Both the position numbers and the translations under genes were made by a program. The notes under the pieces are model-generated. The model searched no databases, had not been told where the DNA came from, and was given only the letters and a program-made list of their open reading frames with translations. 64,000 nucleotides of DNA from Sphagnum compactum (lineage: Eukaryota): NCBI GenBank assembly GCA_965153455.1, contig OZ234493.1, forward strand, positions 18,838,213 to 18,902,212. Reading direction: 5' to 3'. Numbering within the stretch: the stretch's first letter is position 1; every line of letters begins with the position of its first letter. Of this stretch, positions 31,901 to 47,416 are shown piece after piece.

Positions 31901-33889
31901 TTATAATATTATTAAGTAATTAAATAATATTTTAATATATTTTTACAATAATTAATTTGATTAAAATCAATTTACTATCATTTTATAATTTTGATCATTG
32001 TGTAAAAGTATTAAAATCTTAATGTAAAAATTATTATTGTAATAATAACTATTCAATTTCAATAAAATATTATAGGTTCTACATAGCAATAATTTATTAT
32101 AATTCAATTACTTTAATTACAATAAATATGCTAATTATCCACATTATAGTAAAATTACCATTAGATTTGAAAATGTTAATTAAAATTATCAATTATCAAT
32201 ATTATTACTAAGTGCAATTACATCTTATATTTTTCTTTGGTTAATTTTTACCATTTGTAAATTTCAATAATCAAATTTCCAAATTTTTATGTTGGCAGAC
32301 TAATTATTTATTGGAATAACTAATTAAAAATAATAGATATATTATTTGACAATAATGATGATAATGAAATTAATTAGTGTAAAAAGAATAAATATGAATT
32401 TTAATTTTAGACTTTAAGTTCTAAATAATTTGATTATTTATATTTTTTGGCAATTAATTTAATCACAATAATTCTATGATAATTATTGTACTTGTTTTTT
32501 ATACACCTATGGATGATTGATGTATTGTCATCTTTACATATACCCTAATATGAGGCTAATATATATTTTCAAACCATGCCTAATTAATCCATGAGAATAA
32601 TATATATATATGAATGTGGAGTACATAATGTATACATAAGGCTTATTATACATAATTGTTAATTACCATGACATAAAACACGACTTACCTTATACAAAAT
32701 TAGTAACATACATAACTTAATGTATAAATAAATATTAATTATCATGTTTTGATCACTTTTGTAACTAATGGGCCATACGAAGGCATTCTAAGAGGAAAAC
32801 AACATGAAAAATCATCTCATTGGAAGAATGAAAAACTTGTAAATAGTTGCAACATAATCATAAATGTGACCAAAAAATGTGTGATGTGATTTTCAGTAAC
32901 AAATGTAACCAATGTTAGTTGTAAACGACAATGAGTCGCATGTAATCACAAATCATTTGGTTACGTTTTAGTCTTTTTCTATTAGTGACAATGTTTCTAT
33001 TGATGAAAAGATCTTTCCTTTTCTTGGGCATCAAGCTATCCTTGTCCATATATATTTTCTCATGCATTGAAGTATAGAGAAAACTAATTTTATTATGTTA
33101 AATTTTTCTCAATGCCAAATATCTTTTAATAAAGAGCTGGGTGAAAGGTCACATCCTAATGTGAATAATGTTTTCTTGGAAGCTGGATCATTTTTGCCCA
33201 CCATCTATCGTAGAACCTAAGATTTGAATGTTTTTGACAAATCATCAAATAATTTGACAGTTTTCAAAATCTAGCTATTGGGGTTTTTCAAAAAGAAAGA
33301 ACATATTTTCATCATTATGACTTTGTTGGCCTTGACAACCTCAATAAATATTGGTTTTTTAAAACTAGAACCATGCATATATACCAATGTTTGTAGAACA
33401 TGGCATAATGGTTGTTGTCATGTTTACTAAATAGCATTTGCAATTGAGGTGTTGACATAAAATATGTAAGACTGCTCAAGATTCATTTTTTGCCTTTCAA
33501 CTTATAGTCATAGTTGAGAGATAGTCTTGCCGTGCATTCACAACGAACACATTAATCCCAATCTCAATGTCATCCATCCATGTGTGATCTATCAACCATC
33601 ACTATGTTTTGTAATTGACCAAAGTAGTTGAACATGGGACACATCACCCCGAGAGGCTTGACTATAGACTATGTAAATCTCTAAGTCAACATTTTAACTA
33701 GAATTCAATTGTAAACCATGGGGGTGTTAAGAATATTCCATGAGCTCCAAAATATTTGGGATTCACTTTCATTTGTCCACCAAAAGAATAGGCAGTTCAA
33801 TTTACTTGGAAATGGTCAATAATTTTTTAAAATATTCAAAAAATTACAATTGAAATGTAGTCAAAGATGACATCAAGTTGAAAGCGAGT

Positions 33890-35950
33890 TGGTTGAATAA
33901 AAAGGGTTTTCTACTAGTGATATAGTTGGCAATTGATGAAAGTAATTATCTCAAATTGAAACACCTTAACAAATTAAGTTCGTAGAATGCATTAAATTGG
34001 CGAATAAACATAAGTAATTCTTATAAGCCCATACAAATTAAGCTTTCACAACTAAAGCTTTTTGAGTGCATTTAGTTGGCCAACGTACATGTAAGTAATT
34101 CTTGCAAGTTGAAGCATTTACACAAATCAAGATTTTCAAGTGCACTCAATGATGAATAGATGAAACTAGTTATTTCAAATTGAAACACCTTGACAAATGA
34201 AACACTTTGAGTGCATTCAATTCACCCATAGATGAATGTATTTCTTTCACGATGCTTTCAAGTTGTAGAAGTCTTACAAATAAAAATTTAGAATGCATTC
34301 AATTGGCCAATAGATGAGGGTAGTTCTTCCAAGTTGCAACACTTTGACAAATAAAACTTTTGGAGCGCATTCAATTAGCCAATAAATGAAGATAGTTACA
34401 ACACCTTGACAAATTAAGCTCTTCAAGTGCAGTCAATTGGCCAATAGATGAAGGTAGTTCTTTCAACTTGGAACACCCTACCAAATAAAGCTTTTGGAGT
34501 GCATACAATTGGCCAATAGATGAAAGTAGTTCTTCCAAGTTGTAACACCCTACCAAATAAAATTGTTGGAGCGCATGCAATTGGCCAATAGATGAAGGTA
34601 GTTCTTTCAAATTGGAACACTATGACAAATAAAGCCCTTGGAGTGCATTCAATTGGCCAATAGATGAAGGTAGTTCTTTCAAGTTACAACACCATGACAA
34701 ATCAAATTTTCGGAGTGCATTCAATAGGCCAATAGATGAAGGTAGTTCTTTCAACTCAGAACACCTTTGCAAATCAAACTTTTGGAGTGCATTCAATTGG
34801 CCAACAGATGAAGGTAATTCTTTCAACTCGTAACACCCTTTCAAAACAAGCTCTTGGAGTGCATTCAATTGGCCAATAAATGAAGGTACTTCTTTCAACT
34901 CCGAATACCCCCACAAATCAAGCTTTTGGAGTGCATTCAATTGGCCAATAAATGAAGGTACTTCTTTCAACTCCGAACACCCCCACAAATCAAGCTTTTA
35001 GAGTGCACTCAATTGGCCAATAGATGAAGGTAGTTCTTTCAATTCACAACACCTATGCAAAACAAGCTCTTGGAGTGCATTCAATTGGCCAATAGATGAA
35101 GGTAGTTCTTTCAAGTTGCAACACCCCCACAAATCAAGCTTTTGGAATGCATTCAATTGGCCAATAAATGAAGGTAGTTTTTTCAATTCGAAACACCTAT
35201 GCAAAACAAGCTTTTGGAGTGCATTCAATTAGCCAATAGATGAAGGTAGTTCTTTCATGTTGTAACACCCCCACAAATCAAGCTTTTGGAGTGCATATAA
35301 TTGGCCAATAGATGAAGGTAGTTCTTTCAATTCACAACACCTACGCAAAACAAGCTCTTGGAGTGCATTCAATTGGCCAATAGATGAAGGTAGTTCTTTC
35401 AAGTTGCAACACCCTTGCAAATTAAACTCTTGGAGTGCATTCAATTGGCCAATAGATGAAGGTAGTTCCTCCAAGTTGCAACACCTACATAAATTAAGAT
35501 TGTGGAGTGCATTCAATTGGCCAATAGATGAAGGTAGTTCCTCCAAGTTGCAACACCCGCATAAATCAAGATTTTGGAGTGTATTCAATTGGCCAATAGA
35601 TGAAGGTAGTTCTTTCAAGTTGGAACACTCTCGCAAATTAAACTCTTGGAGTGCATTCAATTGGCCAATAGATGAAGGTAGTTCTTTCAAGTTGGAACAC
35701 TCTCGCAAATTAAACTCTTGGAGTGCATTCAATTGGCTAATAGATGAAGGTAGTTCTTTCAACTTGGAACACCCCGACAAATCAAGCTTTTGGAGTGCAT
35801 TCAATTGGCCAATAGATGAAGGTAGTTATTTCAAGTTGGAACACTCTCGCAAATTAAACTCTGGGAGTGCATTCAATTGGCCAATAGATGAAGGTAGTTC
35901 TTTCAACTTGGAACATCCTCGCAAATTAAACTTTCCGAATGCATTTAATT
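33890..35950 (-). pseudogene. Distal, out-of-frame continuation of the NLR LRR array (~28 further 72-bp units)
   Basis: Same 24-aa unit. Deletion/frameshift near 35955-35965; in-frame stops at about 35826, 35229, 34998 and 34620; progressive decay below ~34400. Confidence 0.9.
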
Positions 35951-37125
35951 GGCTTATATCTGAGCAAACTAAAGTCTGGGAGTGCATTTAATTGGTCAAT
36001 AGATGAAGGTAGTTCTTTCAAGTTGCACCCGCCCAAACTAAACTTTTGGAGTGCATTCAATTGGCCAATAGATGAAGGTAGTTCTTTCAACTTGAAACAC
36101 CCCGACAAATCAAGCTCTTGGAGTGCATTCAATTGGCCAATAGATGAAGGTAGTTCTTTCAACTTGGAACACCCCGACAAATCAAGCTCTTGGAGTGCAT
36201 TCAATTGGCCAATAGATGAAGGTAGTTCTTTCAAGTTGCAACACCCTTGCAAATTAAACTCTTGGAGTGCATTCAATTGGCCAATAGATGAAGGTAGTTC
36301 CTCCAAGTTGTAACACCTACATAAATTAAGATTGTGGAGTGCATTCAATTGGCCAATAGATGAAGGTAGTTCTTTCAAGTTGAAACACCCTCGCAAATCA
36401 AACTCTTGGAGTGCATTCAATTGGCCAATAGATGAAGGTAGTTCTTTCATGTTGTAACACCCCCACAAATCAAGGTTTTGGAGTGCATTCAATTGGCCAA
36501 TAGATGAAGGTAGTTCTTTCAAGTTACAACACCATGTCAAATAAAGCCCTTGGAGTGCATACAATTGGCCAATAGATGAAGGTAGTTCTTTCAAGTTGGA
36601 ACACTCTTGCAAATTAAACTCTTGGAGTGCATTCAATTGGCCAATAGATGAAGGTAGTTCTTTCAACTTGGAACACTGTCGCAAATTAAACTCTTGGAGT
36701 GCATTCAATTGGCCAATAGATGAAGGTAATTCTTTCAACTCGGAACACCCCGACAAATCAAGCTCTTGGAGTGCATTCAATTGGCCAATAGATGAAGGTA
36801 GTTCTTTCAAGTTGCAACACCCTTGCAAATTAAACTCTTGGAGTGCATTCAATTGGCCAATAGATGAAGGTAGTTCTTCCAAGTTGCAACACTTGCATAA
36901 ATCAAGATTTTGGAGTGCATTCAATTGGCCAATAGATGAAGGTAGTTCTTTCAAGTTGGAACACCCTCGCAAATTAAACTCTTGGAGTGCATTTAATTGG
37001 TCAATAGATGAAGGTAGTTTTTTTAAGTTGGAACACCCTTGCAAATCAAGCTCTTGGAGTGCATTCAATTGGCCAATAGATAAAGATATTTCTTCTAAAC
37101 TTTGGCATTGTGCCAAATCAAGTAC
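33890..37125. repeat. 72-bp tandem array encoding LRR units (LQxxxLxxCxxLKELPSSIGQLNA), about 44 units
   Basis: The core GGAGTGCATTCAATTGGCCAATAGATGAAGGTAGTTCTTTCAA recurs every 72 nt; count estimated from array length. Confidence 0.95.
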
Positions 37126-40100
37126 TTGTAATTGTAAATAAGAAAATAAATTATTTGGCAACTTTTGAATCATGCATTTTTTTAGGCACAACCACTTAAC
37201 ATTATTCAAATTTCGCCCTTGGATGCAATTTTCCACAATAGTTGGTGAAGCTTCTGTTAGGTCAACCAACCTAAGGTTGCGAAATCCCTTTGAGTCGATT
37301 TGGGACAATAGAGGCAAATTGAGACATTTTTTCAATGAAATGCCCTCTAAATTTTTCACCACCTATCACATGAAATGAAAGCAAAAAGGATTATCAATGT
37401 AAAAGAACATTTCTCGTAATGCCAAATTTTATTAGAAAAATATGTATTTATAAAATCAAAATTCAAAACTAAAACATTTGGTTTTGGACAAAAAAAATCA
37501 TAGGAAATTGAAATAAAATTATAGGATTGAAGTTGTATAATGACAACCTTATCCTTTTGTAAAAAATAATTTGATTGATGTGATTTCCATATAAATCGAT
37601 TCATAATTGGTGGTTCCATTGCAATATTCTGACCCATGTCTCGTAATTGTTCATGTATGTACAAGATTCCACCTTCTTTCCATTGGATTAAAGATCTGTC
37701 TTGTAAATTTTGTAAGTCAAACTTTGGGTATTCATAATTTCCCCTCCACGCTCGACAAATTGTACTTATTTTCAAACCACCAAAAAAACAAGCAATATCC
37801 AAAAACATGTCTTGAAGTTGCTTATCCAAATGGTCATAAGAAATCCTTAATACACTCCAAAGTTTTTCATTATCATTGCCCCCAGTGAGACTTTGCCCAC
37901 TTTTCAATTTGTTTAATGCACCTTCCCACATTTTTAATTTTTTAGTATTGCACAAAAAAGAACCCAATACTTTAAGACTTAAAGGGAGCCCCCCACAAGC
38001 TTTTATAATCTTCATACATATATCGTTGAAATCTTCTATTGGAACACGATTTCCATTACCCGATGCATGTAACATAAATAGTTCCCTTGCTTGTTTTTCC
38101 TCCAAAGGTTTCATGTCCACTTTTCCATCCTCACTTACATGAGATTCCAAACTTTGCCAATTTCGACAATTCACAAGTACTCTGCTTTTAGAAGTTGGAT
38201 TTTTTGTAGCCTTATCAATGAAAATTGGCAAAGATGTAAGGTTTTCCTCCTTACCAACATTATCCACCACCACCAACACTTTCTTTAATATCATACATTG
38301 CCTAATTTTGTCAAGGTCTTCTTTTTTCACATTTTCATCTTTGCATAACCTTTTGCCACACAAATCATGTAGGAGTTGTTTTATGACATCATTGATATTG
38401 TCCTTTGAATTCACATCCTCTAAAAAACTAGACTTATCATATTGGTTGTGGAACATATGATAGAATTTGTTGCTCAAAGTGGTCTTCCCAATCCCACCCA
38501 TTCCAACCAAACCAACAATAGATTCCTTTTGTAACAAGATGTTTATGTCTTTTGCTTTGTCAATCAATGCCACCTCATGACATGGCAAAGGTGGAAACAA
38601 TATATTTTTCTGTCAAAATTCACAAAATATAAGTCATTTATATGTTATACTTCTTATTTGATAACCAATATATATGACATTGCATATGTGATACACATCA
38701 AGTGTGCTATGACCTAATGTGTATCAAATTACATGAACATATATGAAATCAAAAGATTTAGATTTCGTGTTTTTACCTCCATACATATTTTCAAACATTT
38801 TAACAATAAATCGTAACTTGGATGATCTTTGTTTGGTGGCTTGCAAATTGTCAAGTGATTAGCATCTTCAATTTTGTAATGGTTTTTGTTTGACAATCGA
38901 ATAGCTGAGGCATATTTCACTAAAATTCCCTGCATGTGCAAAAAATTAAGTTAATGGAATTCATTGATTATTTTGTTCACTTATGTTTTAACTTATAAGT
39001 AACATAGTAATTCCAAGCAGTGGTGGGAACCAAGTTTAATAACTATTAATGTTTGAATCATAATCAATTTGTGTGTAAAATTAATTTCCTTCAACCCTTT
39101 GGCAAGCAAATTATATAAATACATCACAAAGTTATTGGTTTTTAATCTCATTAATCTTACATGTTTTAATGATGTTATGATTTTCCTTATAAATATTTAT
39201 ATGGAATTGATTTGATGAAGGGACCATTTAAAACCTATTTCTTGATGTTTGAAATCAATTGAATTTCCTTTCCATCAATAGTAATTCATGAAACAAATTT
39301 CATAAAACACATGACCCATTCACCACATTAATATATTCAGAAGTATTGAGTCCTTGATCCCAAACAAATTTTGACAATACAAAAAATGTTCAACTAATGA
39401 ACCAAGTTGGATAACTTTCAATATGGTGAAATGAGAATCTTACCCAATTCTCGTCAAGTGGTAATCCTTCACCAAATGCATAAATGTTGACGTCTTCGTG
39501 AATGGCATTTTTAAAATCCTCTGAAAGGTCTTCCATTTGTGGGTTGAAAGGTTCTAAATTTTTTGAAAAACCAAGTTGGGTTGCATACTTGTTCAACAAG
39601 TTGATTTGTTGATATTGCCAAATGAAATATTTTGATAAATATTGGGTACCACCAGAATGTGGCACACCATAAAATACTACACCTTTGACATTGTTCAAAA
39701 ATGTTTTACAACATTTATGTATTTCATCATCCAAACCATTTTTTGGCCGTTGATATACATGTTTATAAGCTTCAACCACCAAGCTTTTGAGTACAAGACC
39801 TCCAAAACTATAAGCAATTAATGCCACGGGTCCATCCCACAAGGATTGATAACTACAAAATATTCAACAATGCACCAAAATTTTGTTATCAACATTGTAT
39901 TAGCATATACAAATTTATCCTATTATACTTGGAACAATTTTCCAATTCACACATGACCTAAGCCATAAGTTCATAATCAATTTGCTCATCATTTGTCATT
40001 TTTCATTTATTGATTCCATTAATGTACTTAAAAAATGTGACAACCATGTTTTGGTAAAACTATTATTATGTACAAGTATGTAGGTGTTTACATTTTTGTG

Positions 40101-40861
40101 TTAATGTACAACTCATCTTCTATGTGTTACTTTGGAAATATCGTTGAAATAAATAATAATAATTAAAAAAAATATATACCCTTTTTTTGAAATTATTTTT
40201 TTGCAATGAAATGGATGCAAATTTCTACACGTATTAATTTAATTCAATTGCATTACCAAAAATAAAGCTTCAAAAGATGCGAACTAAAAATTGTCATCAA
40301 AACCAAACTAATTGTACTATGAACTTATAGGCTTTGCTTTTATCTTCAAACAAGAACATTTTTGTTTTAGCTCCATTTTATGTTCTCCTACATGAATTTA
40401 ACAATTCAAGTAAATTGAAACTTGTTGGTGTGTATCACAATACTAGCACACATGAACAATTAACTTATGCAAAACATTTAAATTTAAAGCTGTAAACAAT
40501 CATCTTTAATGTACACAAGGAGTAGTAATTAATGTGTCCATAAATAGAGGAGATTGTCACACCTTGAATTTGCAATCAAACTTTGAATGAGGTTTTTACC
40601 AATTTCAGTCACATCATTGTGAACACTTCCCACAATGTTAGAATCATAGGACAATGATAAAATTCGAACATTGTTGTTCAAGTCTTCGGGTAACCACTTT
40701 TCTGGCCAACATATGCACTCTTCTATATCGTTGGTGGGGCGTGTTGTCCATGTTTCCTTCCATTCATCATTCGTGCCAAAAGCAATCCCATGAAAAAAAA
40801 CGATGCTCAAATTTGGATTATTGGAATTGCAAGTGGGATTTAAATCATGCACTAGATAATT
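35926..40861 (-). CDS. Alpha/beta-hydrolase-NB-ARC-LRR (HNL-type) NLR; exons 40563-40861, 39444-39852, 38777-38929, 37548-38609, 35926-37362; first exon(s) unresolved; LRR truncated by frameshift
   Basis: Five GT-AG-bounded exons join in frame. Hydrolase motifs IVFFHG, WPEKWLP, RILSLSYD, AYSFGGL, FYGVPHSG, FGE, DANHLTICKP. NB-ARC motifs GMGGIGKTT, VLVVVDNV, CGGLPLSL, FLDIACFF, IHEQLRDMG. 16 complete homogeneous LRR units. Confidence 0.9.
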
Positions 40862-45767: not shown

Positions 45768-45892
45768 GACCCGCTTTACTCTAGGAGTCCGGGCTGAAAA
45801 AACTTGGGGCCAACTTTGAGCATTTTTGGCGTTTTGTCTGGCCCCAAGTTACTAATAAATGCTACAACATTGGCCAAAGGGTTGCAAATTGA

Positions 45893-47416
45893 CATCGTGA
45901 CAATAATCAAAGGGGCAAACATCCTGGTTGATAACAAGGGATATATCAAGCTTGCAGACTTTGGTGCATCCAAAAAGGTGGTTCAACTTGCAACCATTTC
46001 TGAAGCCAAGTACATGAAAGGCACCCCTTACTGGATGGCTCCGGAGGTCATTCGTCAGACGGTTCATAACTGGCAAGCTGATATGTGGAGTGTTGGCTGC
46101 ACTGTGATTGAAATGGCGACTGGTAAACCTCCCTGGAGCCAGCAGTTCCAAGAGGTAGCTGCATTGTTCCACATTGCAACTACAAATCACACCCTCTCAT
46201 CCCTAAGCATCTTTCTCATCAAGGCAAGGATTTTCTCCTCAAGTGTCTCCAGAGGGAGCCCACACTAAGCCTTAGTGCAACTGAGCTTCTGAAGCATCCC
46301 TTTGTTTTCACCTATGAGAATCAAGGAGGATTAGATGATTCTGAGGACATACAACAACAAGCCGCAGCTGATGGTCATTTGCAGCAGCAGCAGGCAAATA
46401 GGGGAAACAAAGAATTGCGATCTGTGAAAGGTATATGGAGACAGGTTGGCCAGGACAGCTGGAAGCCAACTGGGGTGCTTGGGATGGGTTCATCCTTTTC
46501 TTTCAGAGGCTCCCCATACTCGGTGAAGAATTCTGATAACATCAACTGGGCTTCCAGAAGGGTTGGGAATTCAGACATGGACGACCTTAATTGTTTTGTG
46601 AGGTTGGACTCTGTAAGGTTTGATTCTATCCAACATGATACTTGGAATGAAAGCTAGAACCCGGTGTCAGAGCCCTCATTTGTGGATGGCAACCACTGGA
46701 GGCTTCATCTGACAGCGAATGGGGGGTTCTCTGTAGGACGACCTGTTGCTAATGGAGATCTTGCAAGCATGGGGACCCCAGAATGTGAGCATAGTCTCGG
46801 GGAGAGGGGATGGTCTCTGCAGCAGCAGGAGGAAGATGAAGTGACAGCATCCAAGATTCGTGCCTTCTTGGATGAGAAGGCTTTGGAGCTCAAAAGGCTC
46901 CGGACACCACTCTATGAGGAACTTTATGAGACCTCAATGAGGAGCTCAGAAATTCCTGCTTCAACTGGGCCTCCCGAGAGCTTTATTGCACCTTCGAACC
47001 CTGCTATTGCGAAACAACAAACGCACAGCCCCAGCAAATCACCGGGCGGTCTCAGTGGAAGGTCAATCGGAATGAGAAGCAGCCAAGAGAGTGAGACGAG
47101 CGCGAGTTCTGGGAGCTCCAGTGGAACTGGAGCACCTTCTCCCAGTGTCAATTGTTCCCCTCTTTTGGAAATTCCGTCAGCAAGGTTGAATGAATGGAAC
47201 GGTCTTATTAATGACGCACAGCAACCGCTACCAAGCCCTCGTCTGAGTTCTAGTGAGCGTCAAAGGCTCTGGAGAGAGGAGCTTGAGCAGGAGCTTAGAA
47301 TGAAGCGAGAGGAGAAACGGAAACAATTGGCTAAACAGGGCTCTCCAATGTCTCCACCCAACTCAAAGGGGCTTCAACGACCTGCCAGTCGTCTGGCTAC
47401 TGCTTCCCAAATTTAG
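45893..47416 (+). pseudogene. NPK1: NPK1/ANP-type MAPKKK pseudogene, intronless and 5'-truncated
   Basis: HRD[+4 nt][44 protein letters not shown]. 1-nt deletion at ~46185 before SHPLIP...LLKHPFV; TAG at 46655-46657. C-terminal KIRAFLDEKALELKRLRTPLYEE and SERQRLWREELEQEL are typical of NPK1/ANP. The kinase N-lobe is absent. Confidence 0.9.

Follow-up and report, generated by a model that had tools for sequence, protein, structure and literature searches.

The stretch analysed here, 64,000 nucleotides of contig OZ234493.1 of Sphagnum compactum (assembly GCA_965153455.1, positions 18,838,213 to 18,902,212 of the forward strand) and called the window below, carries on its minus strand, from about 42030 down to 35926, what is probably a Sphagnum-type gene of the hydrolase–NB-ARC–leucine-rich repeat (LRR) immune-receptor type, with an array of 15 LRR units followed by a long run of untranslated units of the same kind. 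As shown in Table 1, six exons were laid out by tblastn with two Sphagnum relatives; all of them are open, and the five upstream exons are 71–86% identical to their counterparts. The open reading frame (ORF) 37356–38612 matches the NB-ARC domain (PF00931, E=1.5e-30, 106.7 bits against a cut-off of 23.5) and WHD_ROQ1 (E=2.4e-11, 44.1 bits against a cut-off of 24), and the ORF of the array matches LRR_14 (PF23598, E=4.1e-63) and LRR_13 (E=1.1e-33). Exon 3 contains an A-x-S-x-G motif. The translations of the hydrolase exons of the window, each scanned singly, gave no Pfam match at E<=0.01; residues 119–250 of the relative P0002 match PF05057 (DUF676, putative serine esterase) with 22.8 bits against a cut-off of 20.3, and P0004 reaches 25.1 bits. 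Since the NB-ARC and LRR parts are matched directly and DUF676 is found in relatives that align to the window exons, the gene probably belongs to the hydrolase–NB-ARC–LRR receptors.

This class, abbreviated HNL, has been described in liverworts (Xue et al. 2012, PMC3352924), and hydrolase-type nucleotide-binding LRR receptors (Hyd-NLRs) of Sphagnum and other mosses have been listed by Chia et al. 2024 (PMC11218826). The gaps between the tblastn segments put introns within the N-terminal domain, between that domain and the nucleotide-binding site (NBS), and between the NBS and the LRRs, with approximate boundaries; in the passages cited from Xue et al. 2012 (PMC3352924), HNL class-specific introns at these three sites are given as phase 0. 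All but one of the best 53 among the 120 database matches listed are named Sphagnum, and the closest group among the matches listed shows an NB-ARC identity of 75–85%.

Table 1. Exons, repeat array and frame break of the hydrolase–NB-ARC–LRR gene in the window.
Feature	Coordinates	Strand	Basis and remarks
Exon 1 with start codon	41875..42030	-	tblastn with P0002 residues 1-52, 71% identity; aligned stretch begins with M
Exon 2, first half of hydrolase-like domain	40540..40858	-	tblastn with P0002 residues 54-166, 81% identity; 3' boundary approximate
Exon 3, second half of alpha/beta-hydrolase-like (DUF676-type) domain	39444..39854	-	tblastn with P0002 residues 152-287, 86% identity
Exon 4, linker between hydrolase-like domain and NB-ARC	38777..38929	-	tblastn with P0002 residues 288-338, 84% identity
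NB-ARC and Roq1-type winged-helix exon	37540..38612	-	tblastn with P0002 residues 338-694, 85% identity; 3' boundary approximate
Last coding exon, 478 codons	35926..37362	-	91-aa pre-array LRR/linker, 15 units, broken 16th unit and stop; LRR_14 E=4.1e-63
Whole array of 72-bp LRR units	33925..37089	-	40 anchor-defined units (37089 to 34170) and about 4 degenerate ones at the end
115-nt "unit and a half"	35898..36012	-	anchor spacing of 115, sequence, ORF end; stop at 35926-35928
Trailing untranslatable units, about 24 recognisable and about 4 degenerate	33925..35897	-	anchor spacings, reading of in-frame stops

The repeat region was resolved by Tandem Repeats Finder into two adjoining 72-bp arrays, 34287–35953 (23.3 copies, 84% matches) and 35975–37094 (15.6 copies, 86% matches). 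On the minus strand, the unit consists of 24 codons reading L-P-S-S-I-G-Q-L-N-A-L-Q-x-L-x-L-x-x-C-x-x-L-K-E. A 36-nt unit anchor has 40 minus-strand matches from 37089 down to 34170, spaced by exactly 72 nt in 35 of 39 cases and by 69, 115, 62 and 82 nt in the remaining four; a 33-nt core occurs 38 times at up to three mismatches, compared with 0 in 100 shuffles. Reading of the sequence adds about four degenerate units beyond 34170, down to about 33925, so that the figure of about 44 units given by the initial annotation, together with its coordinates, is correct. Units 24–30 form an alternating two-unit stretch. Two long antisense ORFs lie over the array on the plus strand, 35266–35991 (241 codons) and 36545–37141 (198 codons), which owe their openness solely to a stop-free reverse-complement frame of the unit; antisense coding was rejected, and for ORF 35266–35991, the one scanned, Pfam gave nothing credible (ForC_N at 18 bits, below its cut-off of 27).

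The units are nearly constant in one part and highly variable in another. For the entropy, base-count and diversity statistics, 34 in-register units of the window were used and divided into a cassette of 27 nt (codons 13–21) and a scaffold of 45 nt. Amino-acid entropy reaches 1.3–2.9 bits at unit codons 13, 15, 17, 18, 20 and 21, while it is 0.96 at codon 14 (L/F) and at most 0.89 at the remaining codons. Of the non-consensus bases, 180 fall in the cassette and 45 in the scaffold, a 6.7-fold excess per nucleotide (binomial p=1e-38); taken separately, in-frame units give a cassette/scaffold ratio of 7.6, and those behind the frame break described below one of 6.2. Nei–Gojobori diversity at synonymous (piS) and non-synonymous (piN) sites is 0.046 and 0.059 in the scaffold and 0.23 and 0.28 in the cassette, and the mean pairwise identity of units 2–14 is 78% for amino acids and 88.7% for nucleotides, the latter made up of 97.0% in the scaffold and 74.8% in the cassette. 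It can be seen above that the core is near-invariant, synonymous sites included, and that variation is concentrated in the xxLxLxx strand and the adjacent codons, both as initially annotated; a uniform spread over the unit is not what the window array shows.

An AlphaFold2 model of the 478-residue ORF, computed from the single sequence, has a mean predicted local distance difference test score (pLDDT) of 83.6 and exceeds 90 throughout the units. It places a beta-strand at unit positions 13–17 and a short helix at positions 3–7; the variable residues alternate with buried leucines on the predicted strand and continue into the loop after the cysteine, and, judging from LRR geometry, they would be surface-exposed on the concave side of the solenoid. 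The best structural match of the model is LIC11098 of Leptospira interrogans (PDB 4u08, chain 4u08_A; E=2.4e-20, TM-score 0.80 by target, root-mean-square deviation 2.6, 40% identity), followed by other regular LRR solenoids, such as SHOC2 and the LRR of RPP1. LIC11098 and SHOC2 resemble the window array as regular LRR solenoids but differ from the window gene in function and domain context, and the match therefore informs on the fold subtype only.

The reading frame does not run through the whole array. The 15th unit is one codon short, and the 16th breaks off near codon 20 and continues from near codon 7 of the unit after it, which shifts the frame by +1; owing to this 115-nt junction, the ORF ends at the stop listed in Table 1. 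As the sequence stands, only units 1–15 are translatable in frame with NB-ARC, and about 25–29 of the roughly 44 units are untranslatable. Behind the break, stops in the unit frame are found at 35826–35828, 35229–35231, 34998–35000 and 34620–34622, a 10-nt deletion occurs near 34400, and scaffold mismatches and divergence increase toward the 3' end of the array. Decay of the trailing units by deamination was considered and dropped, as C>T/G>A changes account for 12 of the 31 scaffold changes in units behind the break and for 7 of the 14 in those ahead of it, without excess. Some units match across the break, identical or 1 nt apart: units 4 and 12 correspond to unit 23, and units 11, 13 and 7 correspond to units 22, 18 and 20, respectively. 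From the consensus, both wrong frames of the unit reach a TGA inside one unit, and a frameshift of either kind therefore terminates the protein immediately; since no domain follows the LRRs, such a truncation merely yields a shorter LRR protein.

The same architecture is found on a family scale. Through a back-translated scan of metagenome contigs, 79 related loci were collected, whose unit counts and orders rest on assembled contigs. The 72-bp array with the common core is present in 79 of 79, with 7–83 units, and the six variable codons of the window recur in about 2,290 clean units from these loci. In the main group, the NB-ARC exon is 84–94% identical to that of the window, and third-position divergence is about 0.13 in this exon compared with about 0.05 in the unit core. 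None of the 79 loci is an orthologue or allele of the window locus, the best NB-ARC identity being 94% (L033 and L029). Forty-nine loci include the pre-array exon together with the complete array, and their median array comprises 32 units, 16 of them in frame; three or more units lie beyond the first stop in 44 of these 49 loci, and no more than one in 4. At six loci, a stop already lies in the pre-array exon. The stops recur across independent assemblies of one locus, and some are polymorphic (L029 versus L033, L017 versus L020). Scaffold damage per unit is 0.57 in trailing units and 0.27 in in-frame units (724 and 1,039 units, respectively; Mann–Whitney p=1e-36), and stops per unit are 0.30 and 0. 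Annotated relatives carry from about 8 to 27 units, and 5 of the 12 annotated proteins that were fetched, from chromosome-scale contigs of 14–37 Mb, end in out-of-frame readings of the unit (P0001, P0003, P0010, P0036 and P0048). For annotation, this means that most family members end inside the array and that models reading through frameshifted units give spurious C-terminal peptides.

Several side observations were made on the family and its relatives. The longest arrays are those of L001 (83 units), L070 (71 units, up to 66 of them in frame), L026 and L056 (65 units each); arrays of 65–83 units far exceed the LRR domains of well-studied plant NLRs, and, being metagenome-assembled, they need long-read confirmation. 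In P0001 (1364 aa), the segment from NB-ARC to the pre-array part occurs twice with an unrelated stretch between, which looks like two tandem paralogues merged in one model. Near-identical LRR units of 24 or 48 residues are also present in other bryophyte hydrolase-NLRs, namely P0073 and P0085 from Ceratodon, P0059 from S. magellanicum and P0101 from Calypogeia, all four with a higher-order period of two units (about 48 residues); for the two from Ceratodon, the Pfam families listed also include a ZZ-type zinc finger. Given these arrays, homogenised LRR arrays seem widespread in hydrolase-NLRs.

Meanwhile, the relations among units indicate how such arrays evolve. For 46.6% of 1,918 units in 63 arrays, the nearest neighbour lies within the same array, compared with 2.0% expected, and in the window the share is 68% of 35 units. 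Some arrays also have private scaffold variants in most of their units; in L077, for instance, position 7 is C in 82% of units versus 2% elsewhere. The first 30 cassettes of the window show 0–2 differences to their own array versus 2–5 to the 2,536 units elsewhere, whereas its final 10 units resemble those of other loci more than those of their own array, so that the 3' end looks older or ancestral and growth appears to be 5'-central. Among 12 same-locus pairs of metagenome-assembled contigs, which may represent alleles or different species, 4 differ by true whole-unit insertions or deletions (of 1, 3, 4 and 16 units); L017/L020 is a fifth scoring pair, and its 2 units reflect a single frameshifted one. 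The concerted evolution proposed by the initial annotation, or alternatively duplication within arrays, is supported by the clustering of units by array, the private variants and the unit indels. Array growth by tandem duplication together with exchange within arrays fits the sequences, from which we infer the molecular mechanism.

The idea that a small alphabet of modules is shuffled was not upheld. In the window, 36 of 40 cassettes are distinct, and an exact match among the 2,536 units of other loci exists for 1 of 40; the closest 144-nt pair of units in other loci differs at 7 nt, and a family-wide alphabet of exact modules was therefore dropped. All four gametes are present at 79 of 171 informative site pairs, so that the variable sites combine almost freely. 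As for the ordered blocks reported earlier, the block cited is genuine, units 36369/36297 and 35537/35465 differing by 1 and 0 of 72 nt, but only two co-linear block pairs exist, and the permutation value (P=0.058) is suggestive and short of significance.

Elsewhere in the window, gene fragments with a partial protein kinase domain lie on the plus strand at 45798–47416 (Pkinase, E=1.8e-25 at 45798–46268), and the serine-rich ORFs after the kinase fragment have no Pfam match. The segment 56000–58200 is richer in G+C (0.44–0.46) and of low complexity, with E, S, L and P runs in long ORFs on either strand; a single ORF from it was scanned and has no Pfam match.

The reading preferred here, which we consider likely, is that the array grew inside the gene via tandem duplication of single units and short blocks, by unequal exchange or slippage, and that duplication and exchange would keep the 18-residue scaffold homogeneous, also at the DNA level, leaving six positions to vary, of which 13, 15 and 17 would lie on the strand, 18 just after it, and 20 and 21 past the cysteine. 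The frame break after unit 15 would end the protein at 35926, and the 25–29 units behind it would be untranslated remains that accumulate stops, indels and scaffold damage; in this large young family, arrays cut short by nonsense or frameshift inside the array would be the normal state in most members. We infer that a 15-unit protein is made, that its variable face binds a ligand and that the gene has an immune function.

Several results weigh against this reading. Positive selection at the variable codons is undemonstrated. In NB-ARC paralogues, divergence at codon positions 1 and 2 (about 0.095) is only mildly below that at position 3 (about 0.135), and from this mild contrast it would seem that constraint is weak or that the family contains many dead copies. 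Where trailing units are compared with in-frame ones, position in the array acts as a confounder, as the 3' units look older. According to Ament-Velasquez et al. 2025 (PMC12222747), repeats of this kind may be lost or spuriously generated in short-read assemblies, a caveat that may bear on the unit counts and orders of the 79 metagenome loci. Two DNA and two RNA public runs gave for 33800–38700 only contigs of 60–146 nt that also fit paralogues; hundreds of contig pieces fit two places, the apparent joints being cross-matches between units, and none of the runs screened contained more than 0.48 of the words sampled from the NB-ARC exon. These runs gave no evidence that the locus is transcribed or translated, and they bear neither on the correctness of the array nor on the stops.

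An account without diversifying selection, in which the six positions are unconstrained surface and the scaffold is kept by purifying selection and young duplications, has an appreciable chance of being right, if less than an even one. The ratio piN/piS at the variable codons is 1.3 in 34 units and 1.7 in the 14 in-frame units, on only about 3 synonymous sites; differences between positional orthologues are even over the unit, 38 of 130 falling in the six variable codons against 25% expected; and near-identical units show non-synonymous to synonymous changes of 159:53 in variable codons and 134:85 in the scaffold, both below the neutral expectation by rough site counts. The contrast between cassette and scaffold is also as strong in the untranslated trailing units (6.2-fold, compared with 7.6-fold in frame). 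Nevertheless, cassettes inside one array diverge at about 25% of nucleotides, far above the scaffold piS, which rules out a uniform mutation rate combined with a single age, and of the differences between closest units within arrays, 212 of 431 (49%) fall in variable codons, a 2-fold enrichment over allelic differences (Fisher p=5e-5). Synonymous changes are likewise enriched in the variable codons between closest units, and the pattern, as far as these comparisons of units go, points to the exchange of pre-existing unit differences at least as much as to new adaptive mutations. The adaptive, combinatorial generation of receptor specificities put forward by the initial annotation is accordingly not demonstrated.

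It is unlikely that the whole locus is a dead pseudogene from a recent burst of NLR duplication, with inherited variation and nothing now expressed or selected, even though the frameshift and four stops in the array, the truncation of 44 of the 49 complete family arrays, the six loci with a stop in the pre-array exon, the high ratio of non-synonymous-type to synonymous-type divergence in NB-ARC, and the lack of an identical protein among the 120 matches listed would all suit such an origin. A dead locus accords poorly with five open upstream exons followed by 478 open codons of the LRR exon, with a count of 15 units that falls inside the range of the annotated relatives, and with scaffold damage that is halved in the in-frame units across the family, a difference that speaks for present or recent selection on the translated parts. 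That the array, its length or its breaks result from a collapsed or expanded tandem repeat in the assembly is highly improbable. Mis-assembly of highly similar repeats from short reads is known (PMC12222747); however, the same architecture recurs in the 79 independently assembled loci and in proteins on 14–37-Mb contigs of several Sphagnum species, the near-uniqueness of the cassettes anchors the assembly, and the breaks consist of substitutions and one specific junction without homopolymer slips.

Beyond growth and decay of the array, the trailing units might act as a reservoir, with unequal exchange or gene conversion between the translated and untranslated parts of one array moving the stop and swapping cassettes in one step, though we consider this a rather long shot. 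If true, the reservoir would give a haploid clonal moss a fast and reversible way of changing LRR length and surface, and plants would then have an equivalent, in the germline or even in somatic cells, of the fungal repeats discussed below or of cassette-donor systems such as the lamprey variable lymphocyte receptors (VLR). Since cassettes, stops and unit indels are directly readable, the family also offers a natural data set on the tuning of LRR number and surface residues.

Comparison with known systems places the array inside a known class of receptors while setting it apart within that class. The window gene shares NB-ARC and C-terminal LRRs with the HNL and Hyd-NLR proteins (PMC3352924, PMC11218826); in the main-text passages of these papers, neither a homogenised LRR tandem array nor units behind premature stops are described. 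No description of homogenised LRR arrays in bryophyte NLRs was found in the open-access main texts searched. The Cf-2 and Cf-5 genes of tomato are similar to the window gene as plant immune receptors in which LRR number varies by exchange of very similar 24-aa units, while the Cf proteins differ from it in being extracellular and receptor-like, in their LRR subtype and in having far fewer identical units. Copy-number variation of the LRRs in Cf-2/Cf-5 is reportedly treated by Dixon et al. 1998; Cf-2 reportedly contains alternating near-identical LRRs, comparable to the alternating stretch of units 24–30 in the window, and no trailing broken units are known in tomato Cf genes. The repeats of rice Xa1 are larger than the 24-aa unit, with a length of 93 aa. 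What mainly distinguishes the alleles of rice Xa1-type NLRs is the composition of their central tandem repeats, which are highly similar to one another (PMC7748011), as may also hold for the window family, but according to the parts of that paper cited here, these are long blocks in few copies, restricted to grasses, and not single-LRR units of 24 aa.

The closest likeness is to the repeats of high internal conservation (HIC) in fungal NLRs. It has been reported that these are WD40, ANK or TPR repeats of the HNWD/het-e/het-d type and that they are recognised by a repeat identity above 85% over a length of 100 aa or more (Dyrka et al. 2014, PMC4986451). LRRs are reported as absent from fungal NLRs (PMC4986451, PMC12222747), and the only LRR example of such repeats mentioned in the cited parts of the 2025 paper is from a sea urchin (PMC12222747). 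In both the fungal repeats and the window, tandem repeats of 24–42 aa in the sensor of an NLR combine a near-constant scaffold with hypervariability at a handful of sites that would form the binding face, and in both families units group by gene, with a repeat number that appears to vary and with numerous inactive alleles. The likeness to fungal NLR repeats asserted by the initial annotation therefore stands in two respects: variation in the window is confined to few positions of a predicted interaction surface, namely six codons whose exposure is expected from LRR geometry, and repeats cluster by gene, as the nearest-neighbour shares and private scaffold variants indicate. It does not extend to the identity threshold, as units 2–14, at 78% amino-acid identity, fall below 85% because 6 of only 24 residues vary. 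The window family further differs from the fungal repeats in its LRR type, in arrays of up to 83 units compared with about 10–12, and in the long stretches behind stops. The window array is thus a fungal-HIC-like LRR array inside a known class of moss NLRs. Homogeneous sensor repeats with few hypervariable sites have been treated as a hallmark of fungal NLRs, and here they occur in a plant lineage and on the scale of a family, which suggests that a constant scaffold, a variable face and an unstable copy number have arisen convergently in immune-type receptors of fungi and of early-diverging land plants.

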